Source: an uncultured Phycisphaerales bacterium
GTDB taxonomy: Bacteria; Planctomycetota; Phycisphaerae; Tepidisphaerales; Tepidisphaeraceae
Length of the DNA: 64,000 nucleotides
Assembly (NCBI GenBank): GCA_963755915.1
Contig: CAVWLP010000002.1
Coordinates: forward strand, 3,680,001-3,744,000
Direction: 5' to 3'
The translations under genes were made by a program, and so were the position numbers. The first letter of the stretch is position 1, and every line of letters begins with the position of its first letter. Positions 8,065 to 27,114 of this stretch are shown here, piece by piece. The notes under the pieces are model-generated. The model was not told the origin of the DNA. It searched no databases and was given only the letters and a program-made list of their open reading frames with translations.

Positions 8065-9519
8065 GTGTTCAAATTTCTTGCCGCATCATGGCGATACATC
8101 GACGACAGAATCGGTGTATCCGAGTTGGTCGGCCCGATGATGAAGCACCTCGCCCCCCGCGACGCACGCTGGTGGTACGTCTTCGGCAGCGCCGCACTCT
8201 GCTGCTTCATCCTTCAAGTCATCACCGGAATCGGCCTGGCACTTTCCTATGTCCCGTCCGGCGGACAGGCCTTCCAAAGCCTTAAATACATCACCGATCA
8301 GGCCCCCCTTGGCAGCGTGCTCCGCGGAATGCATTTCTTCGGCGCATCCGCCATGATCCTGATCATCGGCATGCACATGGTCCAGGTCTACCTTCACGGC
8401 GCGTACAAATATCCGCGCGAGATGAACTGGATGAGCGGCGTGGTTTTGCTCCTGTTCACGCTGGCGATGGGCTTCACAGGCCAACTTTTGAGATGGGACG
8501 CCAACGGCGTCTGGTCCGCAGTTGTCGGCGCCGAGCAGGCGGCACGCGTGCCCGTCATCGGCCCATTCATCGCCCATGCGATTCTCGCCGGCGATACCAT
8601 CGGCGGCGCTACCCTTACGCGCTTCTTCGTGCTGCACGTCTTCATCTTTCCCGCTTTCCTGTTTGCCGGCGTTGGCCTCCACATGTGGCTCATTCTTCGC
8701 CACGGGATCAGCGAAATGCCCAAGCCGGGCGAACCGGTGGTTCCCGCGACCTACAAGAAAGATTACGAAGCCCGGCTGCAGAAGTCCGGCGTGCCGTTCT
8801 TCCCAAATGCGATTTGGCGCGATGCCGTCGCTTCCCTGGTGGTCGTGGTGGGGATTGTCGCCTGCGCTGTCATTTTGGGCCCCCCAACCCTGGTTACCCC
8901 TCCCGATCCGACCACTCTCAATGTGAATCCCGCGCCGGACTGGTATTTCCTCTTTTACTTTGCAATTCTGTCCATGCTGCCCGCGAACCTGGAAACCTGG
9001 GTCATCCTCGGCGGTCCGCCGGTCGTGCTCCTCATCCTGATGTTTTTCCCCTTATTCTTCAACAAGGGAGAGCGCACCCCATCCCGGCGGCCCTGGGCGA
9101 TCGCCATCGTCTTTTTCGTAGTTACGTCCATCATGATTCTGACGATTTACGGTGCGAAATCCCCCTGGTCGCCTGATTTCGCCGCGATTCCATTGGGTCA
9201 GAACATACCCGCCGTGCCCAAGTCGCACTCATTAGGCGCCCAAGTCTTTTTCGACAAGGGATGTATTTATTGCCACGAAGTGGACGGCGACGGCGGCCAT
9301 AGAGGGCCGGATCTTTCCACCGTCGGAGAACGCCTGACAGACGATGAATTGATCATCCGCATAAACAACGGCGGACACAACATGCCGGCATTTGCCGGAA
9401 GAATAACGCATGATGAACTATCGGCCCTTGTCGCCTTCCTCGCAGCGCAGGGAAGGAAACCCTCGCTACCGCCCTCGCAAACCCAAAACATTACCGCGGC
9501 AGGCAGTGTTCATGACTGA
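8065..9519 (+). CDS. qcrB: Cytochrome b fused to a C-terminal cytochrome c
   Basis: RGMHFFGAS, TRFFVLHVF, PDWYF (PEWY-like), C-terminal CIYCH and MPAF. Confidence 0.92.
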   Translation: MFKFLAASWRYIDDRIGVSELVGPMMKHLAPRDARWWYVFGSAALCCFILQVITGIGLALSYVPSGGQAFQSLKYITDQAPLGSVLRGMHFFGASAMILIIGMHMVQVYLHGAYKYPREMNWMSGVVLLLFTLAMGFTGQLLRWDANGVWSAVVGAEQAARVPVIGPFIAHAILAGDTIGGATLTRFFVLHVFIFPAFLFAGVGLHMWLILRHGISEMPKPGEPVVPATYKKDYEARLQKSGVPFFPNAIWRDAVASLVVVVGIVACAVILGPPTLVTPPDPTTLNVNPAPDWYFLFYFAILSMLPANLETWVILGGPPVVLLILMFFPLFFNKGERTPSRRPWAIAIVFFVVTSIMILTIYGAKSPWSPDFAAIPLGQNIPAVPKSHSLGAQVFFDKGCIYCHEVDGDGGHRGPDLSTVGERLTDDELIIRINNGGHNMPAFAGRITHDELSALVAFLAAQGRKPSLPPSQTQNITAAGSVHD

Positions 9520-9593
9520 GCCACGCGAATATCGCAGCCCAATGAACCCAGCCCCGCAAAACAGGCCGGAGACCGTCCCCAACTTCTCCCCGT

Positions 9594-17747: not shown

Positions 17748-18767
17748 ATGGTTACGAGCGGCAGTTCTGCAACGTCTAAACCCCCCTATCAAGGGAAGCC
17801 CGTTGGGTTTACGCTTGTAGAGCTTCTGGTTGTTATTGGAATCATTGCGATTCTTCTCGGCCTGTTGCTGCCCGTTATTGCCAAGGCCCGCGAGCAGGCC
17901 AACCAGGTCAAATGCATGGCCAATTTGCGCACAATTGGACACGCCATAGCGATGTATGCCTCAGACAACGGCGGTTATCTGCCGTTTGGATTTGTACAGG
18001 TCGGAGAGACCATCGGAAATGGCGGCGTCACCTACTCCGATGTCAGCAATCCAACCGGTGACAAGTCAGATTACGTAGACTGGACCATCCTCATCACCCA
18101 CGAGCTTAGCTCAATAGCGGGCACCAGCAGTCTGAACAACCAGACGACCAGCTCCACCAATCCGGGAGTTCGAGGCTATTTCATTTGTCCCACCGCGCCC
18201 GTCTCGACAGTGAACTGCGATTTTTCAGACTACTCCTGTCACCCCAGGCTTATGCCGGATTTGGGAACGCCCGATTACCTGAATCAGGTCCCCGTCAGCA
18301 GGACCAACCCCGGCTATCTCCCTTATCTAAAGCCCTACAAGCTGGCGCAAATACAACGATCGACCGAAATCGCATTGATCTTCGATGCCTCGGTGGCGTC
18401 TCAATACGGGGCCTTTAACGTCGCGTCGGTTGCCTTTGCGATTGATAATGGAAACGTCTACAACACCCATACAACCTGTCTTTCGGATCAATACGGTTCA
18501 ACGTACAACTCCCAGATGATCGATTCCGGCCAGCCGATTGACCCCTACGCCGGGAAAGAGCCGGCAACGCCCGTCCCCAGCGACTTGAACGCCGACACCA
18601 CCGACAACTGGGGAAACATCCGCTTTCGGCATCTCGGAGAAACCGCGGCCAACGCCCTGATGGTCGACGGCCACGTCGAGGTGTTCCATTTCAATCCGCA
18701 TGAGCCCGCGACGAGCATGACCGACCTGTTGCGAAAGAACATCAACGTCAACCTTTCGACCCCGTAA
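17748..18767 (+). CDS. Prepilin-type N-terminal cleavage/methylation protein with H-X9-DG-like C-terminal motif (DUF1559-like)
   Basis: [18 protein letters not shown]...[10 protein letters not shown]. Confidence 0.9.
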
Positions 18768-19151
18768 CATGCTCCCGCCGGTTAGCGAATCCCGGCAAGC
18801 GTCTTTCGCTACAAAACCAGCCCATCGGTAGAAATCTCGATTTTTCGCTTGATTTTTCGAATTTATGTGAAACAATTCATGGTCTCAAGACGTTTAGTCG
18901 ATGGAGAAAGCTATGCGGCAACATTGGTATCCAGAAAATATGAGTGAGACAGCCAAACGATGCGGGTCATTCCGCCTCGATTTGGCCAATTTATAAACTC
19001 CCTGCCGCGTCGGCCGGGAGTTCTTCCCGGCTGAAAGTAATCAACACTTAAATCCGGGACGCAATTGGAAATACAGCCGGGCGCTTGTTGCGTCCTGCTG
19101 CCAAACAAGAGAGGTCCGCGGAATAACCCCGCGCTGATCCAATCTCGGTTC

Positions 19152-19226
19152 GCGCCTGTAGCTCAATTGGCAAGCAGCGCCGCGCTTACATCGCGGAGGT
19201 TGCTGGTTCAAGTCCAGCCTGGCGCA
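19152..19226 (+). tRNA. tRNA-Val(TAC)
   Basis: Anticodon arm CCGCG-cttacat-CGCGG; T arm GCTGG-ttcaagt-CCAGC. Confidence 0.85.
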
Positions 19227-19271
19227 TGAAAGGACAAAGGCCGTGAAAACGCCTGGAAAATCAGGCCTTTT

Positions 19272-19343
19272 ACGCTGTTAGCTCAGAGGCAGAGCACCCG
19301 CCCGATAAGCGGGAGGCCGGAGAGTCGAGACCTCCACGGCGTA
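19272..19343 (+). tRNA. tRNA-Ile(GAT), degenerate T loop
   Basis: CCCGC-ccgataa-GCGGG; T loop GTCGAGA; acceptor ACGCTGT/ACGGCGT. Confidence 0.65.
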
Positions 19344-19354
19344 CTGAAAATCTC

Positions 19355-19429
19355 GCACTGGTAGCTCAATCGGATCAGAGCTCCGGTCTACGAAACCGGA
19401 GGTTGAAGGTTCGAATCCTTCCCAGTGCA
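19355..19429 (+). tRNA. tRNA-Arg(ACG)
   Basis: CCGGT-ctacgaa-ACCGG; canonical T arm. Confidence 0.92.
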
Positions 19430-19488
19430 CTGGTGTCGTAAGTGATTGTATCTAATTACGATGTATTTGTGGTTGCTGATAAGGTTTC

Positions 19489-19560
19489 GCACTCGTAGCT
19501 CAACGGCGGAGCCACCGGCTCTTAACCGGTGGGTTGCAGGTTCGAATCCTGCCGGGTGCA
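19489..19560 (+). tRNA. tRNA-Lys(CTT)
   Basis: ACCGG-ctcttaa-CCGGT. Confidence 0.92.
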
Positions 19561-19614
19561 TGAAAGGAGAATGTCAGATGAATCGGTTCAGGAGAAAACG
19601 GTGCAAATAATTCC

Positions 19615-19689
19615 GCACCGGTAGCTCAACGGAATCAGAGCAACCCTCTTCTAAAGGGTCGGCTGGGGGTTCGAATCCCTCCCGGTGCA
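19615..19689 (+). tRNA. tRNA-Arg(TCT)
   Basis: ACCCT-cttctaa-AGGGT. Confidence 0.92.
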
Positions 19690-19701
19690 TGCGGACAGTG
19701 C

Positions 19702-19773
19702 GCACCGGTAGCTCAATGGCAGAGCCGCCGCCTTTTAAGCGGAACCATGCAGGTTCGATTCCTGCCCGGTGCA
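19702..19773 (+). tRNA. tRNA-Lys(TTT)
   Basis: CCGC-cttttaa-GCGG; T arm GCAGG-ttcgatt-CCTGC. Confidence 0.88.
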
Positions 19774-19789
19774 TGAAGAGAAAAGTTTC

Positions 19790-19864
19790 GGTTCAGTAGC
19801 CCAACCGGCAGAGGCGCCTGACTCAGAATCAGACTTAGTGCAGGTTCGAATCCTGCCTGGACCA
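19790..19864 (+). tRNA. tRNA-Leu(CAG), short variable loop
   Basis: CTGA-ctcagaa-TCAG; acceptor GGTTCAG/CTGGACC. Confidence 0.85.
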
Positions 19865-19873
19865 TAGAAAAAA

Positions 19874-20111
19874 GTTGCGGTAGCTCAATCGGATTGGCTC
19901 TGTCTCATGAATCATCGCGCGGCCAGACGAAGTGGATTTCGTCCTCGGGCAAGGAGCGACGACGAGCAGTATTGAACGGAAATACGGCGAGGAGGAGCGA
20001 CGCCGGCCGAGGACGAAAGACACGAGTCGGGCCCGCGAGGATTCATGAGACAGAGCCGAGAGCGCGGCTCTCCGAAGGCCGAGGTTGAAGGTTCGATCCC
20101 TTCCCGCGACG
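19874..20111 (+). tRNA. tRNA-Arg(CCG) interrupted in the D loop by a 162-nt insertion
   Basis: 5' part GTTGCGG-TAGCTCAATCGGATT (19874-19895); 3' part GAGAGCG-CGGCT-ctccgaa-GGCCG...GAAGG-ttcgatc-CCTTC-CCGCGAC-G (20058-20111). Confidence 0.85.
19896..20057. mobile_element. MITE-like element with 18-bp perfect terminal inverted repeats
   Basis: GGCTCTGTCTCATGAATC (19896-19913) / GATTCATGAGACAGAGCC (20040-20057); inner pair TTTCGTCCTCGG/CCGAGGACGAAA. Confidence 0.7.
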
Positions 20112-20126
20112 TGAAAGAAAAACATT

Positions 20127-20198
20127 GGGCCCGTCGTCTAACGGGAAGACTCCTGGCCTGCAACCAGGAAATGAGGGTTCGATTCCCTCCGGCGTCCA
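20127..20198 (+). tRNA. tRNA-Ala(TGC)
   Basis: CCTGG-cctgcaa-CCAGG; G3:U70 present; one-base bulge in acceptor stem. Confidence 0.75.
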
Positions 20199-20205
20199 TC
20201 GGATT

Positions 20206-20279
20206 GCTTCGGTAGCCCAACCGGAAGAGGCGCGTGATCGAGGTTCACGTCAGTGCAGGTTCGAGTCCTGCCCGGAGCA
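20206..20279 (+). tRNA. tRNA-Leu(GAG), short variable loop
   Basis: CGTGA-tcgaggt-TCACG. Confidence 0.82.
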
Positions 20280-20292
20280 CTGAAAGCGTTTC

Positions 20293-20366
20293 GCCGCGGT
20301 AGCCCAATGGCAGAGGCGGTGGTCTCAAGAACCGTTTGTGTGTGGGTTCAAATCCCACCCGCGGCA
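20293..20366 (+). tRNA. tRNA-Leu(CAA), short variable loop
   Basis: GTGGT-ctcaaga-ACCGT; acceptor GCCGCGG/CCGCGGC. Confidence 0.85.
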
Positions 20367-20426
20367 TGAAAGGAGAATCCGATGAGTAGCGGCTCATCAC
20401 AAAAAAATAGCGAAGACTCCGATTGC

Positions 20427-20510
20427 GGAGGGTTGGCCGAACGGTAAGGCATCCGTCTCGAAAACGGACATGGCGCACGCGCCTTGGGGGTTCGAATCCC
20501 TCACCCTCCT
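20427..20510 (+). tRNA. tRNA-Ser(CGA)
   Basis: TCCGT-ctcgaaa-ACGGA; long variable arm. Confidence 0.9.
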
Positions 20511-20563
20511 TCCGACTCGCGCAGAGCGCTCGGCCTGCCGTGAGCGAGCGCAGCGAGTCGAAC

Positions 20564-20652
20564 GGAGGGTTGGCAGAGTGGCCTAACGCGCCGGGTTGCT
20601 AACTCGGAAGGCTTTGAAAAGGGCCTCGAAGGTTCGAATCCTTCACCCTCCG
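20564..20652 (+). tRNA. tRNA-Ser(GCT)
   Basis: CCGGG-ttgctaa-CTCGG; long variable arm. Confidence 0.9.
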
Positions 20653-20692
20653 CTGGATTTTGGGCGGTACGAAAATGGTTCGTCCCGCGAAG

Positions 20693-20705
20693 TGTTCTTT
20701 GACAA
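20693..20705 (+). promoter_or_regulatory. boxA-like antitermination sequence
   Basis: TGTTCTTTGACAA, preceded by a small hairpin ACGAA-aatgg-TTCGT. Confidence 0.5.
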
Positions 20706-20719
20706 TCAGGTGGCGTATT

Positions 20720-20792
20720 GCCGTCATAGCTCAGCGGAATGAGCGTCCGGTTGTCAACCGGAAGGCCATGGGTTCAACCCCCATTGACGGCG
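20720..20792 (+). tRNA. tRNA-Asp(GTC)
   Basis: TCCGG-ttgtcaa-CCGGA. Confidence 0.88.
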
Positions 20793-20797
20793 TTTTT

Positions 20798-20868
20798 GTG
20801 GATTCAGCTCCAAGGTAGAGCGGGGGCCTGAAGAGCCCCAGGGCTTGGTTCGATTCCAGGAGTCCACA
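20798..20868 (+). tRNA. tRNA-Phe(GAA)
   Basis: GGGGC-ctgaaga-GCCCC; acceptor GTGGATT/AGTCCAC. Confidence 0.82.
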
Positions 20869-20878
20869 TTGAAGCGAT

Positions 20879-20949
20879 GCGTCGGTAGTTCAGCGGTCGA
20901 ACACCGCTATGCCAATGCGGAGGCCCGGGTTCTATTCCCGGCCGGCGCA
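20879..20949 (+). tRNA. tRNA-Gly(GCC)
   Basis: CCGC-t-atgccaa-t-GCGG; T loop TTCTATT. Confidence 0.8.
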
Positions 20950-20962
20950 CTGAGATTGACGA

Positions 20963-21034
20963 GCAGTGATAACTCAGCCGGGAGAGTGCCGGTCTTCCAA
21001 ACCGGAGACGTGGGTTCGAATCCCGCTCACTGCA
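20963..21034 (+). tRNA. tRNA-Gly(TCC)
   Basis: CCGGT-cttccaa-ACCGG. Confidence 0.9.
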
Positions 21035-21049
21035 TAATGCGAGTTTGAT

Positions 21050-21122
21050 GCCGTGGTAGCTCAAAGGGTAGAGCGGTCGTCTCGTAAACGACAGATCGCC
21101 GGTTCGATCCCGGCCCGCGGCT
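21050..21122 (+). tRNA. tRNA-Thr(CGT)
   Basis: GTCGT-ctcgtaa-ACGAC. Confidence 0.92.
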
Positions 21123-21136
21123 CTTAGGGATATTCT

Positions 21137-21210
21137 GGGTGCGTAGCTCAATGGCGGAGCAGGGGCCTCATAAGCCCAAGGTTGTTGGTTCGAATCCAAC
21201 CGTTCACCCA
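21137..21210 (+). tRNA. tRNA-Met/Ile2(CAT)
   Basis: GGGC-ctcataa-GCCC; two extra bases in the 3' acceptor strand. Confidence 0.75.
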
Positions 21211-21227
21211 TTTTTAGAAACTTTTAT

Positions 21228-21300
21228 ACAGGGATAGTTCAATCGGTAGAACGCTCGGCTCTGAACCGGGTTGCTGGAGGTTCGAATCCTTCTCCCTGAA
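21228..21300 (+). tRNA. tRNA-Gln(CTG)
   Basis: CTCGG-ctctgaa-CCGGG. Confidence 0.88.
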
Positions 21301-21301
21301 C

Positions 21302-21374
21302 TGAGCCGTAGTTCAATCGGTAGCAATGCCGGTCTTTGAATCCGGCGATCGTGGTTCGAATCCACGCGGCTCAA
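21302..21374 (+). tRNA. tRNA-Gln(TTG)
   Basis: CCGG-t-ctttgaa-t-CCGG; acceptor TGAGCCG/CGGCTCA. Confidence 0.85.
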
Positions 21375-21384
21375 ATACCTTAAT

Positions 21385-21458
21385 ACCTTCGTGGTGGAAT
21401 TGGTACCACACTCGGTTGTTACCCGATGAGATTGCAGGTTCGAATCCTGCCGAAGGTG
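21385..21458 (+). tRNA. tRNA-Asn(GTT)
   Basis: TCGG-ttgttac-CCGA; acceptor ACCTTCG/CGAAGGT. Confidence 0.82.
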
Positions 21459-21480
21459 TTAGCGGAGCGAGACGCTCCGC

Positions 21481-21559
21481 TAGAAGGTAGAAAGTAGAGA
21501 GTAGAAAGTAGACTGAAATCCCGTCTTCCCTACTTTGTACTTTCTACTCTCAACTTTCT
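21481..21559. repeat. Inverted pair of heptamer tandem repeats
   Basis: (GTAGAAA/GTAGAGA)n followed by complementary (TACTTTC/TACTCTC)n. Confidence 0.7.
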
Positions 21560-21570
21560 CGCGCAGCGCC

Positions 21571-21642
21571 GCTCTCGTCGTCTAATGGTCAGGATAACCG
21601 GCCTTCAACCGGAGAGTGTGGGTTCGATTCCCTCCGGGAGCA
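21571..21642 (+). tRNA. tRNA-Glu(TTC)
   Basis: CCGG-ccttcaa-CCGG; acceptor GCTCTCG/CGGGAGC. Confidence 0.82.
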
Positions 21643-21656
21643 CTGCAAGTTCAATT

Positions 21657-21730
21657 CAGCGTGTGGCGAAGCTTGGCATCGCGCGTGCCTCGGGCGCACG
21701 AGATCGAAGGTTCGAATCCTTCCACGCTGA
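21657..21730 (+). tRNA. tRNA-Pro(CGG)
   Basis: CGTGC-ctcgggc-GCACG; C1-G72. Confidence 0.9.
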
Positions 21731-21740
21731 CTGTTTTAGC

Positions 21741-21825
21741 GCGTAGGTCGCATAACTGGCATTGCAGCGGGCTGTAACCCCGCCGACCCAACGGGTTTTT
21801 GGGGGTTCAAATCCCTCCCTACGCA
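21741..21825 (+). tRNA. tRNA-Tyr(GTA)
   Basis: GCGGG-ctgtaac-CCCGC; long variable arm. Confidence 0.88.
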
Positions 21826-21846
21826 TTGCGGCCAGAGGCCGCGAAC

Positions 21847-21919
21847 GCGCCGGCTGTTCCAGCGGTGGAACGCCCGCCTCCAAATCGGGAAACGGCAGGT
21901 TCGATCCCTGCCCGGCGCT
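21847..21919 (+). tRNA. tRNA-Trp(CCA)
   Basis: CCCG-c-ctccaaa-t-CGGG; acceptor GCGCCGG/CCGGCGC. Confidence 0.8.
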
Positions 21920-21929
21920 GAAACTTTTT

Positions 21930-22001
21930 GAGGATGTGGCCGAATGGCAAGGCGCGGGTCTGCAAAGCCTGCTGATGCTGGTTCGAATCCAGTCATCCTC
22001 T
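21930..22001 (+). tRNA. tRNA-Cys(GCA)
   Basis: CGGGT-ctgcaaa-GCCTG; U73. Confidence 0.88.
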
Positions 22002-22003
22002 TT

Positions 22004-22078
22004 GTGGCCGTAGCTCAACTGGATCAGAGCACCGGGATGTGGCCCCGGTCGTTGTGAGTTCAAATCTCACCGGTCACC
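22004..22078 (+). tRNA. tRNA-His(GTG), no encoded G-1
   Basis: CCGGG-atgtggc-CCCGG; C73; preceding base is T. Confidence 0.88.
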
Positions 22079-22124
22079 CTGAAAAAATACGCCCCCTGTT
22101 GTCGGTTTGTGAAAGGAGTTTGAG

Positions 22125-22385
22125 ATGACGCGTGCAACGCAATTTGACGTTTTGCCGGCCGATGTCGGCGCCGCAAGCGTTGCGGTGATTCACGTTCGGT
22201 TTGCCGGACAAAGCTTTGACGTTCCGCTGGCGAGCCTGGATGTCGGCGTCCAAAGCGCTGACGGCGCCATCAGGGCAGCCGTGGCCAACTGGCTGAGAGT
22301 GTCGCCGGCCCGTCTGGAGGCCTATGTGATCGACCGCCATGCCAACGGCAATCTGACGATTCGTCCCGAAGCGGTTTTCGGATGA
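22125..22385 (+). CDS. Small protein ending in Gly, putative ubiquitin-like/beta-grasp protein
   Basis: AAAGGAG RBS; 86 aa with beta-beta-alpha-beta pattern; ends IRPEAVFG-stop; ThiF gene in the same cluster. The CDS is solid, the fold is inferred. Confidence 0.65.
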   Translation: MTRATQFDVLPADVGAASVAVIHVRFAGQSFDVPLASLDVGVQSADGAIRAAVANWLRVSPARLEAYVIDRHANGNLTIRPEAVFG

Positions 22386-22397
22386 ATCGTGTTGCCG

Positions 22398-22564
22398 TGC
22401 CGCGGCCGGGACGCCGGGATCGCACCCAACGCCAGAAGCTTACAAACAAGGTTGGCACGGCGGGCAACCGCTGTGCCAGGGGTGCGAATCCCCCCAGAGG
22501 TCCTGGTTAGGACCGCAACAGATGCTTTTGTGACTCGTGCGATCGCGGCGTCCCGGCCGCGGCA
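22398..22564 (+). ncRNA. Y RNA-like structured RNA, copy 1
   Basis: Ends pair over ~27 bp (TGCCGCGGCCGGGACGCCG.GATCGCAC / GTGCGATC.CGGCGTCCCGGCCGCGGCA); CCAACG..AAGCTTACAAAC motif; internal T-arm-like GGGG-tgcgaat-CCCC. Confidence 0.7.
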
Positions 22565-22589
22565 AAATTCAGGAGTTTTATGGATCGAG

Positions 22590-22772
22590 ATCGGCCGCCT
22601 GCGAATTGCGGCCCGCGCCCAACGATTGGAGCATACAAACTGGTTGCTTGTGGGGATCATTTTCCCGCAATGAAGGTTCGAATCCTTCCACCCCGTCTTT
22701 GAAGAACTGTGCGGGGTGCGAAAATATTTGCTCCCGCAACTTGCGCGAACCGCAATTCGCCGGCGATCCGAT
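22590..22772 (+). ncRNA. Y RNA-like structured RNA, copy 2
   Basis: Outer stem GCGAATTGCGG/CCGCAATTCGC; CCAACG..GAGCATACAAAC; T arm GAAGG-ttcgaat-CCTTC followed by loop-closed stem CACCCCG/CGGGGTG. Confidence 0.72.
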
Positions 22773-22804
22773 TGGAACTTAATCACGGAGACGCCGCCAA
22801 AACA

Positions 22805-22970
22805 TTCTGCAGTACACGCCGTACCCAACGGCGCGAGCATACAAACGTTGCTAACGTAGAGGTTACGGGTTCGAGTCCCGTCAGGCCAGCTTTCAATCAT
22901 TCGGGCCTGTAGCTCAATGGTAGAGCGCTAAAAAGTGGCTCATGCGACTTGTATGGCGTGTTCTGCGGAT
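22805..22970 (+). ncRNA. YrlA-like RNA with circularly permuted tRNA domain, copy 3
   Basis: Outer stem CACGCCGTAC/GTATGGCGTG; T arm ACGGG-ttcgagt-CCCGT, then loop-closed acceptor CAGGCC/GGCCTG, then D arm TA-GCTC-aatggta-GAGC. Confidence 0.8.
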
Positions 22971-22987
22971 TTTATGAAAGGAAGAGA

Positions 22988-23163
22988 TCGATTCGCCGAT
23001 GCCGCGCCTGCACCCAACGGCAGGAGCATACAAACTTGCGGGTTCGAATCCCGCCATTTGCGAATGCAAATGACGTCCATTTGGAAGGACACCTGACTCA
23101 CAATCAGGCGTTTAACAACGCACAGCTCGTGTGACTTGTGCGGGCGCGGCGCCGGTGAATCGA
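22988..23163 (+). ncRNA. Y RNA-like RNA with a permuted tRNA retaining an anticodon-like arm, copy 4
   Basis: Outer stem GCCGCGCCTGCAC/GTGCGGGCGCGGC; T arm, acceptor hairpin CATTTGC-gaat-GCAAATG, D arm GTCC/GGAC, arm CCTGA-ctcacaa-TCAGG. Confidence 0.75.
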
Positions 23164-23185
23164 CTTGACGGAAAGGAGCAGCACC

Positions 23186-24835
23186 ATGACGAACATGAAC
23201 GCACACCTCACGACCGAACAGGACGCACGTCTCCGGCTGCTGAACACGCTGCTGACGACGCCGCACCGCAAGCTCCAGAAAGTTCACCCGGTGCATGAAG
23301 AAATCGCGGCCAACGATCCGCGCTTCTACGTGCGCCTCGCTTCCTGGTACTTCGACCACGGCGACGTTCGCGACCACAAGGAAATGTTCGTGGTTTCGCT
23401 GGTTTTGAGCGATTTCGAAGGACACCGCGACGTTGGATTGGCCCTGCTGCGCCAGCTCCCGCCGTACGAAGTGGGGCGGGTGCTGGACTTCATCAACGGC
23501 CGCAAGACAACCCGTAAGGTGATCGTGCGCACTCGCAAGGCGCGCAAGGACCGCGCGGCTGCGAAGGCTCAGCCGGGCCTGATCAATCGAATCGCGCGCC
23601 TGGTGACGGGAAACGCCGCGGAATCGGCGGAAGCCGGGCCGACCGAAGCAGCGCCGGCGCCGGAAATCAAGCTGGTGACGGAAACCTTCGGGCTCTTCCG
23701 CAACCCGCCGCGCTCGCTACGGACGGAAATCGTCCGCTACCTGCGTGAACGCGAAGCCGACGGCGAATGGTTCGACAGCACCGTGCTCGTTGCCCGCAAG
23801 GCGATCAAGCGGCTGTACGCGCTGAACCACGTGAAGCCGGGTGATCGCGCCCAGCGGATCCTCTTCGACGAAGATCCGCCGGCCGGCAGCCGGATTTACG
23901 CTTTGCGCAAGCTCGCCGCCGCAACCACGCCGGCGGAGCAGGCGCAGGCGATTATCGACAACGCGATTCCGTATCGAGTCGCCCAGTCGGTCGTCAAGCA
24001 GATGACGCCGACGATTCTGCTGGCCCTGATCGAGCGGATGAGCCCTCAGGAACTGATTAACAACGTCGCCTCGCTGACGAAGCGCGGCGCGATGGACAAT
24101 CCGGACCTGAAGGCGTTGATCGACCAGAAGCTTGAGCAGGCCCAAACGGCCCAGCGGGTTAGCGGGCTCAAGGCGCAGAAGGCGATTGAGTCGGCCGGCG
24201 CAACGGTGTCGCCGGACGTGAAGGCGAAGCTCGAAAGCGTCGCCGACGCGCAGATCAAGGCTAAGGGCCGGATCGACCGTCCCACGGCGCTGCTCATCGA
24301 CAAGTCGGGCTCGATGTCGCTGGCGATTGAACTCGGCAAGCGCATCGGCGCCCTGATTTCCGCGATCTGCCGCGCGGAGCTCTTCGTCTACGCGTTCGAC
24401 ACGATGGCTTACCCCATCGAGCGCGGCGGCGACGACCTTGCTTCGTGGGAAAAGGCGCTGGTTGGCATCAAGGCCGGCGGCGGAACGAGCTGCGGAGTCG
24501 CCGTCGAGGCGATGCGCATCCGCAAGCAGTACGTCGAGCAGATCATTCTCGTCACCGACGAGGGTGAAAACACGGCGCCGCTGTTTGTGCCCACGCTGCA
24601 GAAGTACCGGGAAACGGTCAAGGCCGTTCCCAACATCTGCATCGTTCGCGTCCCGCGCAGCGTGACGACGGTTGAGTCGAATTGCCGCGCGGCTGGTTTG
24701 ATGGTCGATGTGTTCCAGTTCGCCGGCGACTACTACTCGCTGCCGAACCTGGCGCCGCTCCTGAGCAAGCCGAGCAAGCTCGAATTGCTCATGGAGATCC
24801 TGGAGTACCCTCTGCCGAAGCGGAGGTCGGCGTAA
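23186..24835 (+). CDS. Alpha-helical + vWA domain protein, probable divergent Ro60/TROVE-like RNA-binding protein
   Basis: AAAGGAG RBS before ATG 23186; C-terminal vWA with MIDAS DKSGS, GGGTS, VTDEGEN; basic helical N-terminal region; directly follows the Y RNA-like repeats. Confidence 0.75.
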   Translation: MTNMNAHLTTEQDARLRLLNTLLTTPHRKLQKVHPVHEEIAANDPRFYVRLASWYFDHGDVRDHKEMFVVSLVLSDFEGHRDVGLALLRQLPPYEVGRVLDFINGRKTTRKVIVRTRKARKDRAAAKAQPGLINRIARLVTGNAAESAEAGPTEAAPAPEIKLVTETFGLFRNPPRSLRTEIVRYLREREADGEWFDSTVLVARKAIKRLYALNHVKPGDRAQRILFDEDPPAGSRIYALRKLAAATTPAEQAQAIIDNAIPYRVAQSVVKQMTPTILLALIERMSPQELINNVASLTKRGAMDNPDLKALIDQKLEQAQTAQRVSGLKAQKAIESAGATVSPDVKAKLESVADAQIKAKGRIDRPTALLIDKSGSMSLAIELGKRIGALISAICRAELFVYAFDTMAYPIERGGDDLASWEKALVGIKAGGGTSCGVAVEAMRIRKQYVEQIILVTDEGENTAPLFVPTLQKYRETVKAVPNICIVRVPRSVTTVESNCRAAGLMVDVFQFAGDYYSLPNLAPLLSKPSKLELLMEILEYPLPKRRSA

Positions 24836-24838
24836 TTC

Positions 24839-24870
24839 AGCGGCGCGGCTCAAAAAGCCCGCGCCGCTTT
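24839..24870 (+). terminator. Possible intrinsic terminator or processing hairpin
   Basis: AGCGGCGCGG-ctcaaaagc-CCGCGCCGCT followed by a short T run. Confidence 0.45.
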
Positions 24871-24884
24871 TGGAAGGTCGTTAT

Positions 24885-25586
24885 ATGCGCTCGGACATGG
24901 CCAAAGTAATCGTGGAACGGCCCCGCAGAGGCGGCGGAATCCGTTATCCGCGCAGTCACCCGGATTCCCATCGATTGGACATCGAGGATTTCCGCAGTCG
25001 CCAGGGCATGCGCCGGCCGTGGCTCAGTTCCCACGCAAAGGGATTGAATGAAAACCTCGCGCCCCTGGAGCGCTATCTGCGAACCCACGTGGGCCGCCCG
25101 TGGGATGACATTTACAGCGAGATTTGCGAGCACATGAATCGCAATTCCGCCGTTCAACTGCACATCTGGCAGCACCTAATGCAATTTGTCTGCAGAGATG
25201 TTTATGTCACGCTCGGTTTGGTCAAGCCGTCATGGTGGCACGGCGCGGGAAGGTTTTATGTCGACCCGAGCACGGGAATATTGCGCGAAAATCTGTTCAG
25301 GTGGCGCTACCGGCGGCCCGAACCGAAGCCCGATCCAAACCGCGTTCCAGCGAGCGAGGATATCGAATATCGGCGAATTGAGGGCATCTGGTATGAATTG
25401 CGCTTGGCGCCGATTCCGAAGTTTCGCATCGGCTACGACTTCGCGATCAGAAAACATCTGACCGAAATCAGCGACGATCTCCTTCACAAGTTTTACGACC
25501 GACAGGTTTACGCCGCGAGGAAACGCCAATTGAACAAGAAAGAAATCAGAAAACTTGGACTGACAACGGCAGGGACAAAATCTTGA
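24885..25586 (+). CDS. Basic hypothetical protein (MRSDMAKVIVERPR...)
   Basis: Arg/Lys-rich ORF whose stop overlaps the next start; LNENLAPLERYLRTHVGRPWDDIYSEI. Confidence 0.75.
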   Translation: MRSDMAKVIVERPRRGGGIRYPRSHPDSHRLDIEDFRSRQGMRRPWLSSHAKGLNENLAPLERYLRTHVGRPWDDIYSEICEHMNRNSAVQLHIWQHLMQFVCRDVYVTLGLVKPSWWHGAGRFYVDPSTGILRENLFRWRYRRPEPKPDPNRVPASEDIEYRRIEGIWYELRLAPIPKFRIGYDFAIRKHLTEISDDLLHKFYDRQVYAARKRQLNKKEIRKLGLTTAGTKS

Positions 25587-26440
25587 AAAAGGAACTTCTT
25601 CAAACTCTTAAGAATCTTGCTGCCGCGGAGAATGCGTTCGTCGACATCGAATTCCTCGCCCCGGTCCTGCGCGGCTCCGGCGTCGCGGTAAAAATTGCCG
25701 GGGTCCGCTGCAACGTCGCGATTGATCCGCCCGATTTCCAGGGCTGGGGTGTCTTTCGCGCCGATTCCCTGACGAGCGCCGCTTTGCTTCGCGAAGCGAC
25801 CCCCACGCAGCGGCGAAACTATCTGCGTCTGCTTCCCTCGGTCCGCCTAATCGTTTGTGGCGGAAAGGCGAGCACTGCGATGGCCCTTCCCGCCAATCCC
25901 TCGGACACGCGCTTCTATTTTGCGGGACCGGTCTTTGTGCAGCTTTGCCCGAAAATCGATTTGTTCACGACGATAATGTGCCGGTTCTATGCCGCTCAAT
26001 TTTGGTTCGACAGTCTGGATTCGCGCACTGATCCCGCCGCCGCAGCGTACTTGCGGCGTGAACTGACGAACATGACCGAACCGAAAAATCTTTCCCGTAG
26101 GGGCGTAACCCGTGGCGAGCGATTCGCCTACGCCTTTGAATTTTCGCGCCGCGCCAGCGCAATTCTCGCCGACCGGCGGCATCGCGCCGACGTCCGCCTA
26201 AAGCAGGCGCTGGCCCATGCCGGCGCCATCCTGACCGATTTTTCCGAAGACCACGATTTGTTTCGCGTCGCTTATTTGGTCGACGGCCGCCGTCATCTGA
26301 GCAACGTGCGCAAGGACGATCTCACAGTTCAATCCGCCGGCATTTGCCTCGCCGGCCAGGACCGGAATTTCGATCTCGCGAGCCTGGTAGGAGTCCTTCG
26401 CGAGGGCGATTCCATGTCCAGATTTCCCCGCCGGCGGTAA
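25583..26440 (+). CDS. Hypothetical protein
   Basis: 285-aa ORF translationally coupled to the upstream gene; C-terminal AGICLAGQDRNFDLASLVGVLREG. Confidence 0.75.
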   Translation: MKKELLQTLKNLAAAENAFVDIEFLAPVLRGSGVAVKIAGVRCNVAIDPPDFQGWGVFRADSLTSAALLREATPTQRRNYLRLLPSVRLIVCGGKASTAMALPANPSDTRFYFAGPVFVQLCPKIDLFTTIMCRFYAAQFWFDSLDSRTDPAAAAYLRRELTNMTEPKNLSRRGVTRGERFAYAFEFSRRASAILADRRHRADVRLKQALAHAGAILTDFSEDHDLFRVAYLVDGRRHLSNVRKDDLTVQSAGICLAGQDRNFDLASLVGVLREGDSMSRFPRRR

Positions 26441-26460: not shown

Positions 26461-27114
26461 ATGCCCGGAGCCTTCCATCACGAATCCCTCTACCGCGGCC
26501 CCGAAGCGCTTGCGCGGCTGGCGTCGCTGCGCATCACCCTCTGCGGCGCCGGCGCGATCGGTTCGAACCTGGCCGACAACCTCGTCCGCCAGGGCGCGGC
26601 GAAACTGCGCGTCATCGACGACGACCGCGTCGAGCAGCACAACATTTCCACGCAAATCTACGGCGAATCAGATGTAGGCGTCTGGAAGGTCGAAGCCTTG
26701 CGGAACCATCTTTTCCGCGCCTGCGGCATCGAAATTGACGCCGTGCGGAAAAGACTCACCGCGCAAAACGCCGGATCGCTTCTGAAAGATGCCGATCTGG
26801 TTATCGATGCGCTCGACAATTCGCAGTCGCGCCAGATCGTGCAAGACCATGCGCGAGCAACCAATGTCCCGTGCATTCACATCGGCCTGTACGAAGACTA
26901 CTGCGAATCGATTTGGGACGAGCAATACCGCGTGCCCGCGGATCGTGCGAATCAGCATGACGTTTGCGATTATCCGCTGGCCCGGAACCTGGTACTGCTC
27001 GCTGTCGCGATTGCGTCAGAAACGATCGTGAAATGGCCCGCCACCGGCGAGCGTGCGAATCTCTCCGCGACGCTCAAAGATTTTGCGGTCAGGCCCCTGG
27101 TGCAGCGGGTTTGA
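26461..27114 (+). CDS. ThiF/MoeB/E1-family adenylyltransferase
   Basis: GAGAIGS nucleotide-binding loop, DDDRVEQHNISTQ, KVEAL, DLVIDALDN..SR; no CxxC zinc pairs. Confidence 0.9.
   Translation: MPGAFHHESLYRGPEALARLASLRITLCGAGAIGSNLADNLVRQGAAKLRVIDDDRVEQHNISTQIYGESDVGVWKVEALRNHLFRACGIEIDAVRKRLTAQNAGSLLKDADLVIDALDNSQSRQIVQDHARATNVPCIHIGLYEDYCESIWDEQYRVPADRANQHDVCDYPLARNLVLLAVAIASETIVKWPATGERANLSATLKDFAVRPLVQRV

Follow-up and report, generated by a model that had tools for sequence, protein, structure and literature searches.

To our knowledge, bacterial Y RNAs are recognised mimics of tRNA whose partner is still unknown. A stretch of 64,000 nucleotides from the genome of an uncultured Phycisphaerales bacterium (contig CAVWLP010000002.1, positions 3,680,001 to 3,744,000; hereafter the window) raises the question of what such mimicry is for in a particular form: behind an array of tRNA genes, the last of four tandem Y-like RNAs (copy 4) encloses all the arms of a tRNA, the anticodon arm included, in permuted order. 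Is this the precursor of a working tRNA, a leftover of the ancestry of the RNA, a bait, or a mimic with a role of its own?

A permuted tRNA body inside copy 4

The permuted core forms the inner module of copy 4, and its parts are as follows (positions are those of the window).

22995-23156, + strand: Y-like RNA copy 4, entire; closing stem with the motifs CACCCAACG..GAGCATACAAAC on its 5' side and GTGACTTGTGCG on its 3' side
23038-23054, + strand: T arm, GCGGG-TTCGAAT-CCCGC, tRNA positions 49-65, from reading and fold
23055-23072, + strand: acceptor-like 7-bp hairpin, CATTTGC-GAAT-GCAAATG, with tetraloop GAAT; the 3' strand precedes the 5' strand
23073-23074, + strand: linker AC, tRNA positions 8-9
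23075-23090, + strand: D arm, GTCC-ATTTGGAA-GGAC
23091, + strand: single A, tRNA position 26
23092-23108, + strand: anticodon-like arm, CCTGA-CTCACAA-TCAGG, with the triplet CAC at 23099-23101
23109-23120, + strand: extra short hairpin, CGTT-TAAC-AACG, in the opened variable region, from the fold of the whole RNA

The first-pass annotation had placed these arms at 23038-23108 within a fourth RNA copy; its elements proved right base for base, and the existence of four tandem Y-like RNAs is borne out by their folds, by our covariance model R1 (see below) and by the Rfam YrlA model. A strict descriptor of the layout, scanned over both strands, found this single match in the 64-kb window. Taken alone, the 71-nt core (23038-23108) folds into just the four hairpins (-26.6 kcal/mol, z -3.86, equalled by 1 of 200 shuffles), and the whole of copy 4 (22995-23156) folds with these hairpins enclosed by a long closing stem (-79.1 kcal/mol, z -5.35, 0 of 200 shuffles). 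As the arms run in the order T, sealed acceptor, D and anticodon, the element is a tRNA circularly permuted at the variable region, and, as in permuted tRNA genes, the 3' half of the tRNA is encoded before the 5' half, with a 4-nt intervening loop. The acceptor is a hairpin closed by GAAT and without CCA, so that copy 4 is not chargeable as encoded, as had been proposed from the sequence at the outset.

When the cloverleaf is closed again it scores as a tRNA. Cores were circularised by joining three native bases 5' of the T arm, the core itself and two native bases 3' of the anticodon-like arm. In this form ARAGORN calls the window core as tRNA-Val(cac) with a score of 108.6 and returns calls for 30 of the 31 distinct members of the family described below (scores 104-123), the window member scoring fourth lowest among the 30; genuine tRNAs of the array score 104.3-128.1 (median 118.1). 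No calls came from 3,100 dinucleotide shuffles, nor from the 33 native linear sequences. The proposal of a cloverleaf opened at its variable loop thus agrees with the spacing, the fold and the ARAGORN call after circularisation, and the check suggested with it, re-permutation against shuffled controls (for which we used ARAGORN), came out in its favour. A bare call near 100 is not decisive by itself, since circularised sliding pieces of copy 1 gave 39 weak calls (scores 100-106) among 2,580. Once circularised, the core has the canonical spacing and the conserved nucleotides of a tRNA; copy 4 has neither free acceptor ends to which CCA could be added nor colinear order, and its native strand yields no ARAGORN call.

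The tRNA array and the Ro-like neighbourhood

Around copy 4 lie a tRNA array, three further Y-like RNAs and a set of protein-coding genes, the occurrence of which was followed by tblastn in 82 loci (80 genome contigs and two kin genomes carrying the Ro-like gene).

19152-22079, + strand: accessory array of 27 tRNA genes, 26 from ARAGORN and one, 19272-19343, added by Rfam tRNA
22125-22385, + strand: small conserved ORF, 86 aa, ending in ...RPEAVFG; tblastn matches in 68 of 82 loci
22399-22563, + strand: Y-like RNA copy 1; long closing stem, T-arm-like hairpin and two more hairpins; R1 42.4 bits; weak Tymovirus tRNA-like match in its inner part (20.7 bits, E 0.14)
22589-22773, + strand: Y-like RNA copy 2; fold z -5.2; R1 28.9 bits at 22613-22752
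22806-22969, + strand: Y-like RNA copy 3; canonical YrlA topology, no anticodon loop; 61.4 bits with R2, the refined model
23186-24835, + strand: divergent Ro60-like protein P0001; TROVE-like helical ring and vWA domain with DxSxS motif
24870-25586, + strand: gene X; 21 of 82 loci, many truncated at the flank
25583-26440, + strand: gene Y; 54 of 82 loci, many truncated at the flank
26461-27114, + strand: ThiF/E1-like gene; 44 of 82 loci, many truncated at the flank; ThiF in Pfam 1.4e-30, E1-E2 in PADLOC 3.4e-23

The Ro-like gene starts 30 nt 3' of copy 4. Its product, P0001, has no match in Pfam (TROVE included); homologues about 69% identical to it match PF25045 (vWA_Ro60), and a profile of the family matches RO60 in the PDB (9nen, 1.6e-5). 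P0001 has more than 2,700 relatives. The AF2 model of P0001 (pLDDT 82.8) retrieves the Ro60 structures 1yvp, 9nfa, 2nvo and 9l5y with Foldseek (E 1e-10 to 1e-8, TM 0.52-0.65) and aligns over its full length with Xenopus and human Ro60, D. radiodurans Rsr and the Ro60 of a Thermus phage. The neighbour thus has the Ro60 fold, which identifies the four RNAs as Y-like RNAs of a divergent Ro60 homologue. They share the 5' motif CACCCAACG..GAGCWTACAAAC and the 3' motif GYGACTYGTGCG. Copy 3 matches Rfam YrlA with 50.7 bits at 22838-22958, under the gathering score of 69, and copy 1, with a 26-bp closing stem (-111.1 kcal/mol, z -10.2), may be a further, more degenerate tRNA mimic.

The small ORF has a core of about 66 aa that ends in RPEAV[FY]G, with a C-terminal Gly in all 14 homologues inspected. 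Judged by its sequence, it looks like a ubiquitin-like or sulfur-carrier protein, with the ThiF/E1-like gene presumably encoding its activating enzyme and both linked to the Ro-like ribonucleoprotein (RNP). Protein Y yields a confident model (pLDDT 85) with only weak matches to RNA-binding barrels of the OB, S1 and cold-shock kinds (E 2e-3 and worse); it has no Foldseek match at E<=0.001, and its Atlas matches are all below 0.9. PADLOC, Pfam and NCBIfam give no match for X, Y or the small ORF. The module lies among chromosomal genes of planctomycete type. Scans of 18700-23300 for promoters and terminators found no more sites than in shuffles, and none on the + strand at copy 4. A search for RNA runs containing 22380-23200 returned none, and four DNA contig runs gave identical pieces only, with no variants.

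The order of the array tRNAs is common to the window and to two metagenome-assembled genomes (MAGs), one from the Tepidisphaeraceae (L010) and one from the Phycisphaerae (L006); 57 further, housekeeping tRNAs are encoded in the window's genome outside the array. The first-pass annotation had remarked that the array holds no Val(CAC) gene, and none is present among its 26 ARAGORN tRNAs and the one found by Rfam only. This absence carries no weight, because the triplet of the mimic differs in almost every orthologue, GAT occurs in L010 in the mimic as well as in an array tRNA, Ile(GAT), and the genome of the window has a housekeeping tRNA-Val(cac) elsewhere, the arm of which is unrelated to that of copy 4. 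Two simple derivations are ruled out by the same facts: copy 4 as a stand-in for a missing array tRNA, by the double GAT of L010, and its arm as a copy from the housekeeping tRNA-Val(cac), by the unrelatedness of the arms. As an aside on the array itself, the tRNA that ARAGORN missed (19272-19343, Rfam 51.2 bits) has the loop CCGATAA, of Ile(GAT) type with C rather than U at position 33.

A family of permuted RNAs and its covariation

R1 was built from the window and L010. It gave 258 matches in 83 sources, only three of them above 90 bits: the window (168.3 bits), L010 (156.6 bits) and L006 (94.7 bits). The remaining 255 matches (83 sources) reach at most 51.5 bits and have other topologies. 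A scan of metagenome contigs with the exact pattern found 60 loci, 29 of which hold 30 full RNAs of the permuted type (E<=1e-12); among the others, contig ends truncate three, L110 is a variant whose loop has 8 nt, and all that remain are chance matches. The refined model R2 gives the permuted type at least 106 bits (130.6 bits for copy 4 of the window) and everything else at most 68.5 bits. The family thus delimited comprises 31 distinct sequences, namely the window, the two Phycisphaerae MAGs and 28 metagenomic RNAs, its range as seen here being that of the exact pattern by which the metagenome members were drawn. The order of T arm, sealed acceptor, D arm and anticodon-like arm is common to all 31.

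The distribution is sparse: among 401 sampled genomes of the phylum, only the one that contains the window has the permuted pattern, and the Ro-like gene occurs in two of 24 genomes of the same family. This gene adjoins the permuted RNA in the window, L006, L010, a viral contig and five of the 29 metagenome loci; in the other 24 it was not seen within the 400-nt flank, and it is the shortness of these flanks that makes adjacency visible in only five. The viral contig (L150, 340 kb, IMG/VR) contributes two members. They belong to a row of Y-like RNAs at 8468-9590 on the minus strand, upstream of the same Ro-like gene, in which two other RNAs embed a non-permuted tRNA body whose acceptor stem continues into the Y stem. 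ARAGORN calls these bodies as tRNA-Ser(tga) (115.4) and tRNA-Met(cat) (102.4), and the conserved TACAAAC motif lies within their acceptor 5' strand. Together with the other types, the viral row shows a tRNA body in at least three connectivities inside one RNA family.

Cyanobacterial loci with the same Ro-like gene (L012-L084) carry many tandem Y-like RNAs upstream of it, seen as R1 matches, and in several loci such matches also lie downstream of the gene (e.g. L007 7007-7088, L048 9200-9682). Four cyanobacterial loci (L028, L030, L052, L082) were considered for the permuted type on account of a similar hairpin after the D arm and were rejected, R2 giving them at most 68.5 bits; L030 folds as a canonical YrlA.

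Across the 31 sequences, 96.9% of the alignment cells at paired positions are paired, and 25 of 33 pairs have changed in both bases, counts that come from an alignment (A4) fitted to the model. None of 500 shuffles reached this level of covariation, and slid controls pair in 33-40% of cells. MAFFT with RNAalifold, which is independent of the model, arrives at the same helices, with compensatory changes in 24 of their 32 pairs. The outer closing helix 1 covaries at six of six pairs (99.5% of cells paired), the acceptor-like stem at six of seven and the T arm at three of five (100% of cells paired). The anticodon-like helix covaries at all five of its pairs, with 98.7% of cells paired. The first-pass annotation had made conservation of this hairpin across homologues a check on its reading: the hairpin is indeed conserved in the 31 sequences, and the triplet is not.

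The loop has 7 nt in 30 of the 31 members and 6 nt in L006, and its flanking positions are those of a tRNA: T33 in 30, Y32 in 28, R37 in 29 and A38 in 27 of 31. Positions 34-36, by contrast with these, have an entropy of 1.74-1.90 bits over the 31 sequences, and the triplets (CAC, GAT, TAA, TAG, TCT, GAA, TGA, GTG, CAA, CTT, TTT, CGT, GCA, GAG, CCA, ATT, CGC and TGG) are nearly random. Seven pairs of RNAs share 80-95% identity outside the arm; within these pairs, differences fall on 12 of 21 triplet sites, 6 of 70 stem sites and 22 of 30 sites of the acceptor-closing loop. The triplet is under no more constraint than the freest part of the RNA, and plain lack of constraint would suffice to explain its sequence; since it drifts no faster than the acceptor-closing loop (0.57 against 0.73), diversifying selection is possible and is not required.

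The tRNA body is kept as well (T8 in 27, A14 in 30, A15 in 29, G18 in 30 and G19 in 25 of 31), and a T just before the T arm, present in 29 of 31, may form a Levitt pair with A15; part of the invariance of the T-loop is imposed by the pattern used in the search. The window member has A8 and T15 at two of these positions, and copy 4 is on this account a slightly degenerate member. The acceptor-like stem has 7 bp in 19 of 31, and 22 of 31 members close it with a loop of 3-4 nt, in seven cases a GNRA tetraloop, with CCA or NCCA in the loop of only four of the 31, so that the acceptor end looks built to remain closed. The extra hairpin of the variable region is present in some orthologues; the alignments give CAGT-AACA-ACTG as its counterpart in L006 and none in L010. 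An invariant motif of the family, GAGCWUACAAAC, lies 5' of the T arm, with CCCNAC upstream of it.

Relation to known RNAs and possible role

YrlA has been described as a tRNA mimic (10.1101/312249, PMC4201824) that 'lacks the anticodon loop', the strands of its anticodon stem running into the Ro-binding module (10.1101/312249). Copy 4 resembles YrlA (RF02553) in its Ro60-homologue neighbour, in the long stem formed from both RNA ends, in the order of T arm, loop-closed acceptor and D arm, in the tRNA-like elbow (G18, G19, T-loop) and in being non-chargeable as encoded; a Ro60-fold gene next door and a covarying outer helix are what marks it as a Y RNA. It differs in that its anticodon arm is a closed 5-bp/7-nt hairpin and its putative Ro-binding stem exits from the variable region, and in that its family lacks the 5' GNCGAA and its Ro-like protein has diverged beyond the reach of Pfam TROVE. 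Rfam YrlA gives copy 4 only 24.6 bits, over model positions 29-81 and under the gathering score of 69. The bacterial Ro-recognition motif GNCGAAN0-1G was found 5' of the T arm in none of the 31 members, so that we base Ro binding by the permuted RNAs on synteny and analogy. As the YrlA RNAs so described have no anticodon loop, the permuted RNA represents a new connectivity.

The first-pass annotation had set copy 4 against YrlA on these grounds and called a retained anticodon loop unusual; the contrast with YrlA holds as far as that account goes (10.1101/312249), and the word 'unusual' needs softening in view of D. radiodurans Yrn1, modelled with a potential anticodon arm of 5 bp and a 6-nt loop and without a full D arm (PMC4201824). 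With its T arm and potential closed anticodon arm, Yrn1 as described there is a precedent for a hairpin at this place (PMC4201824). It differs, going by that description, in having no V arm, whereas copy 4 has four canonical arms, a 7-nt loop, U33 and R37. In the literature searched, which left subscription journals largely uncovered, we found no description of a Y RNA with a canonical 7-nt anticodon loop. In algae and Thermofilum, permuted tRNA genes give working tRNAs, and their junctions, accompanied by BHB motifs, lie at 20/21, 37/38, 50/51 or 59/60 (PMC3978253); the junction of copy 4, in the variable region, is absent among the junctions listed there. Copy 4 is set apart from these genes also by its Ro-type stem flanks, its bacterial or viral carrier and its loops, which are apparently built to stay closed. 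In imitating the tRNA L-shape it is like tmRNA and the viral tRNA-like structures. Those have a free CCA end and are charged; copy 4 has no free acceptor end and has a true anticodon-type loop.

We hold it probable, at roughly 0.6, that copy 4 is a complete, non-chargeable tRNA mimic serving as the effector module of a Y RNA on a Ro-like RNP. By analogy with all known Y RNAs, the long closing stem is the putative docking site of the neighbouring Ro-like ring, with GAGCAUACAAAC as the proposed binding site. The stem would exit where a class II tRNA bears its long variable arm, a position that leaves elbow and anticodon loop both exposed. Copy 4, which we infer to be expressed and bound by the Ro-like protein, would then display an intact elbow and a free loop shaped for a U-turn (Y32, U33, R37, A38). 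Most likely, again by analogy, the module would recruit or block a partner, presumably one that binds tRNA, that reads tRNA shape and loop geometry and not the triplet, and would thereby tether or gate the Ro-like protein.

As to its origin, an ancestry of YrlA in dimeric tRNA transcripts has been proposed by the authors of the M. smegmatis YrlA work cited below (10.1101/312249). The permuted layout fits that model, as the expected capture of a tRNA-tRNA array junction, and the permuted type corresponds to the form the model predicts before the anticodon arm of the second tRNA was lost (10.1101/312249). R1 positions 33-103 match true tRNA-tRNA junctions of the arrays, e.g. window 19665-19743 with 31.5 bits; here, at 19615-19773, Arg(tct) and Lys(ttt) share their acceptor stem sequence, and the junction therefore folds like a sealed acceptor. 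The same model (10.1101/312249), the R1 matches at array junctions and the unconstrained triplet would also suit an anticodon arm that is merely left over from an ancestral junction, frozen and with no role of its own. Such an arm should have decayed, yet its stem covaries at 5/5 pairs and is 98.7% paired, its loop keeps 7 nt and T33 in 30/31 each, and the hairpin is retained across sequences as little as 60% identical; we consider a relic very improbable. The permuted tRNA precursor offered by the first-pass annotation would require the stem to be removed, the ends at the variable loop joined, the acceptor opened by RNase P and 3' trimming, and CCA added to give a working tRNA-Val(CAC). Such a pathway would accommodate several facts: RNase P cleaves M. 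smegmatis YrlA in vitro and CCA is added to it in vivo, its acceptor stem likewise measuring 7 bp (PMC4201824); ARAGORN accepts the re-permuted core as a tRNA; the window array is without Val(CAC); and the viral sister RNAs hold non-permuted tRNA-Ser(tga) and tRNA-Met(cat) bodies. It is disfavoured by closing loops that seal the acceptor (3-4 nt in 22/31, seven GNRA) and hold NCCA or CCA in only 4/31, by triplets that are nearly random (with ATT twice) and one loop of 6 nt, by Ile(GAT) in both array and mimic of L010, and by a housekeeping Val(cac) with an unrelated arm. Its junction is moreover unlike the known ones with their BHB motifs, and a splicing endonuclease goes unreported for bacteria in the accounts consulted (PMC3978253, 10.1101/312249). 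A precursor is in our judgement very improbable.

Besides the precursor, the first-pass annotation had offered a decoy for anticodon nucleases and a ribosome-binding mimic, both of which are candidate roles. The sealed tRNA body might instead be a bait or decoy that soaks up or reports nucleases or modifiers of anticodon loops, with the RNP and the linked genes responding and the triplet caught up in an arms race. We think this rather unlikely, for all that it agrees with several features of the locus: the triplet is near saturation in close pairs (12/21 sites against 6/70 in the stem) while U33, R37 and A38 are retained, and the module accompanies an accessory tRNA array that comes on top of 57 housekeeping tRNAs. 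Its spread is patchy (Ro-like gene in 2/24 genomes of the same family, pattern in 1/401 of the phylum) and extends to a viral contig of 340 kb (IMG/VR), the module is linked with an E1-like gene and a small Gly-ended protein, and TROVE proteins with tRNA-like partners have been tied to RNA repair in jumbo phages according to a review (PMC7824862). Against an arms race, divergence in the triplet does not outpace that in the acceptor-closing loop (0.57 against 0.73), and, judged by eye, the anticodons have no bias towards known nuclease targets; the neighbourhood yielded no nuclease, no RtcB and no known defence family. A wider version, in which the Ro-like RNP shows a sealed tRNA with a freely evolving loop as bait within a mobile tRNA-surveillance or protection module of bacteria and giant phages, composed of tRNA array, mimic Y RNAs in differing permutations, Ro-like ring, Gly-ended protein and E1-like enzyme, is unlikely. 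If true, a bait or decoy role would be the most interesting outcome.

For the preferred reading, that of a mimic on the Ro-like RNP, the significance lies in the partner. A canonical anticodon stem-loop that is kept while its triplet drifts narrows the search to readers of the whole L-shape and of loop geometry, and the permuted family supplies natural variants with which binding and cleavage can be tested. The locus also presents, directly behind a tRNA array, the form that the dimeric-tRNA origin model predicts, in which the T arm of one tRNA leads into the acceptor, D and anticodon arms of the tRNA after it. Finally, as Rfam YrlA misses this family and Pfam TROVE misses its Ro-like protein, a sizeable branch of Ro proteins and Y RNAs stands unannotated in Planctomycetota, cyanobacteria and giant phages.
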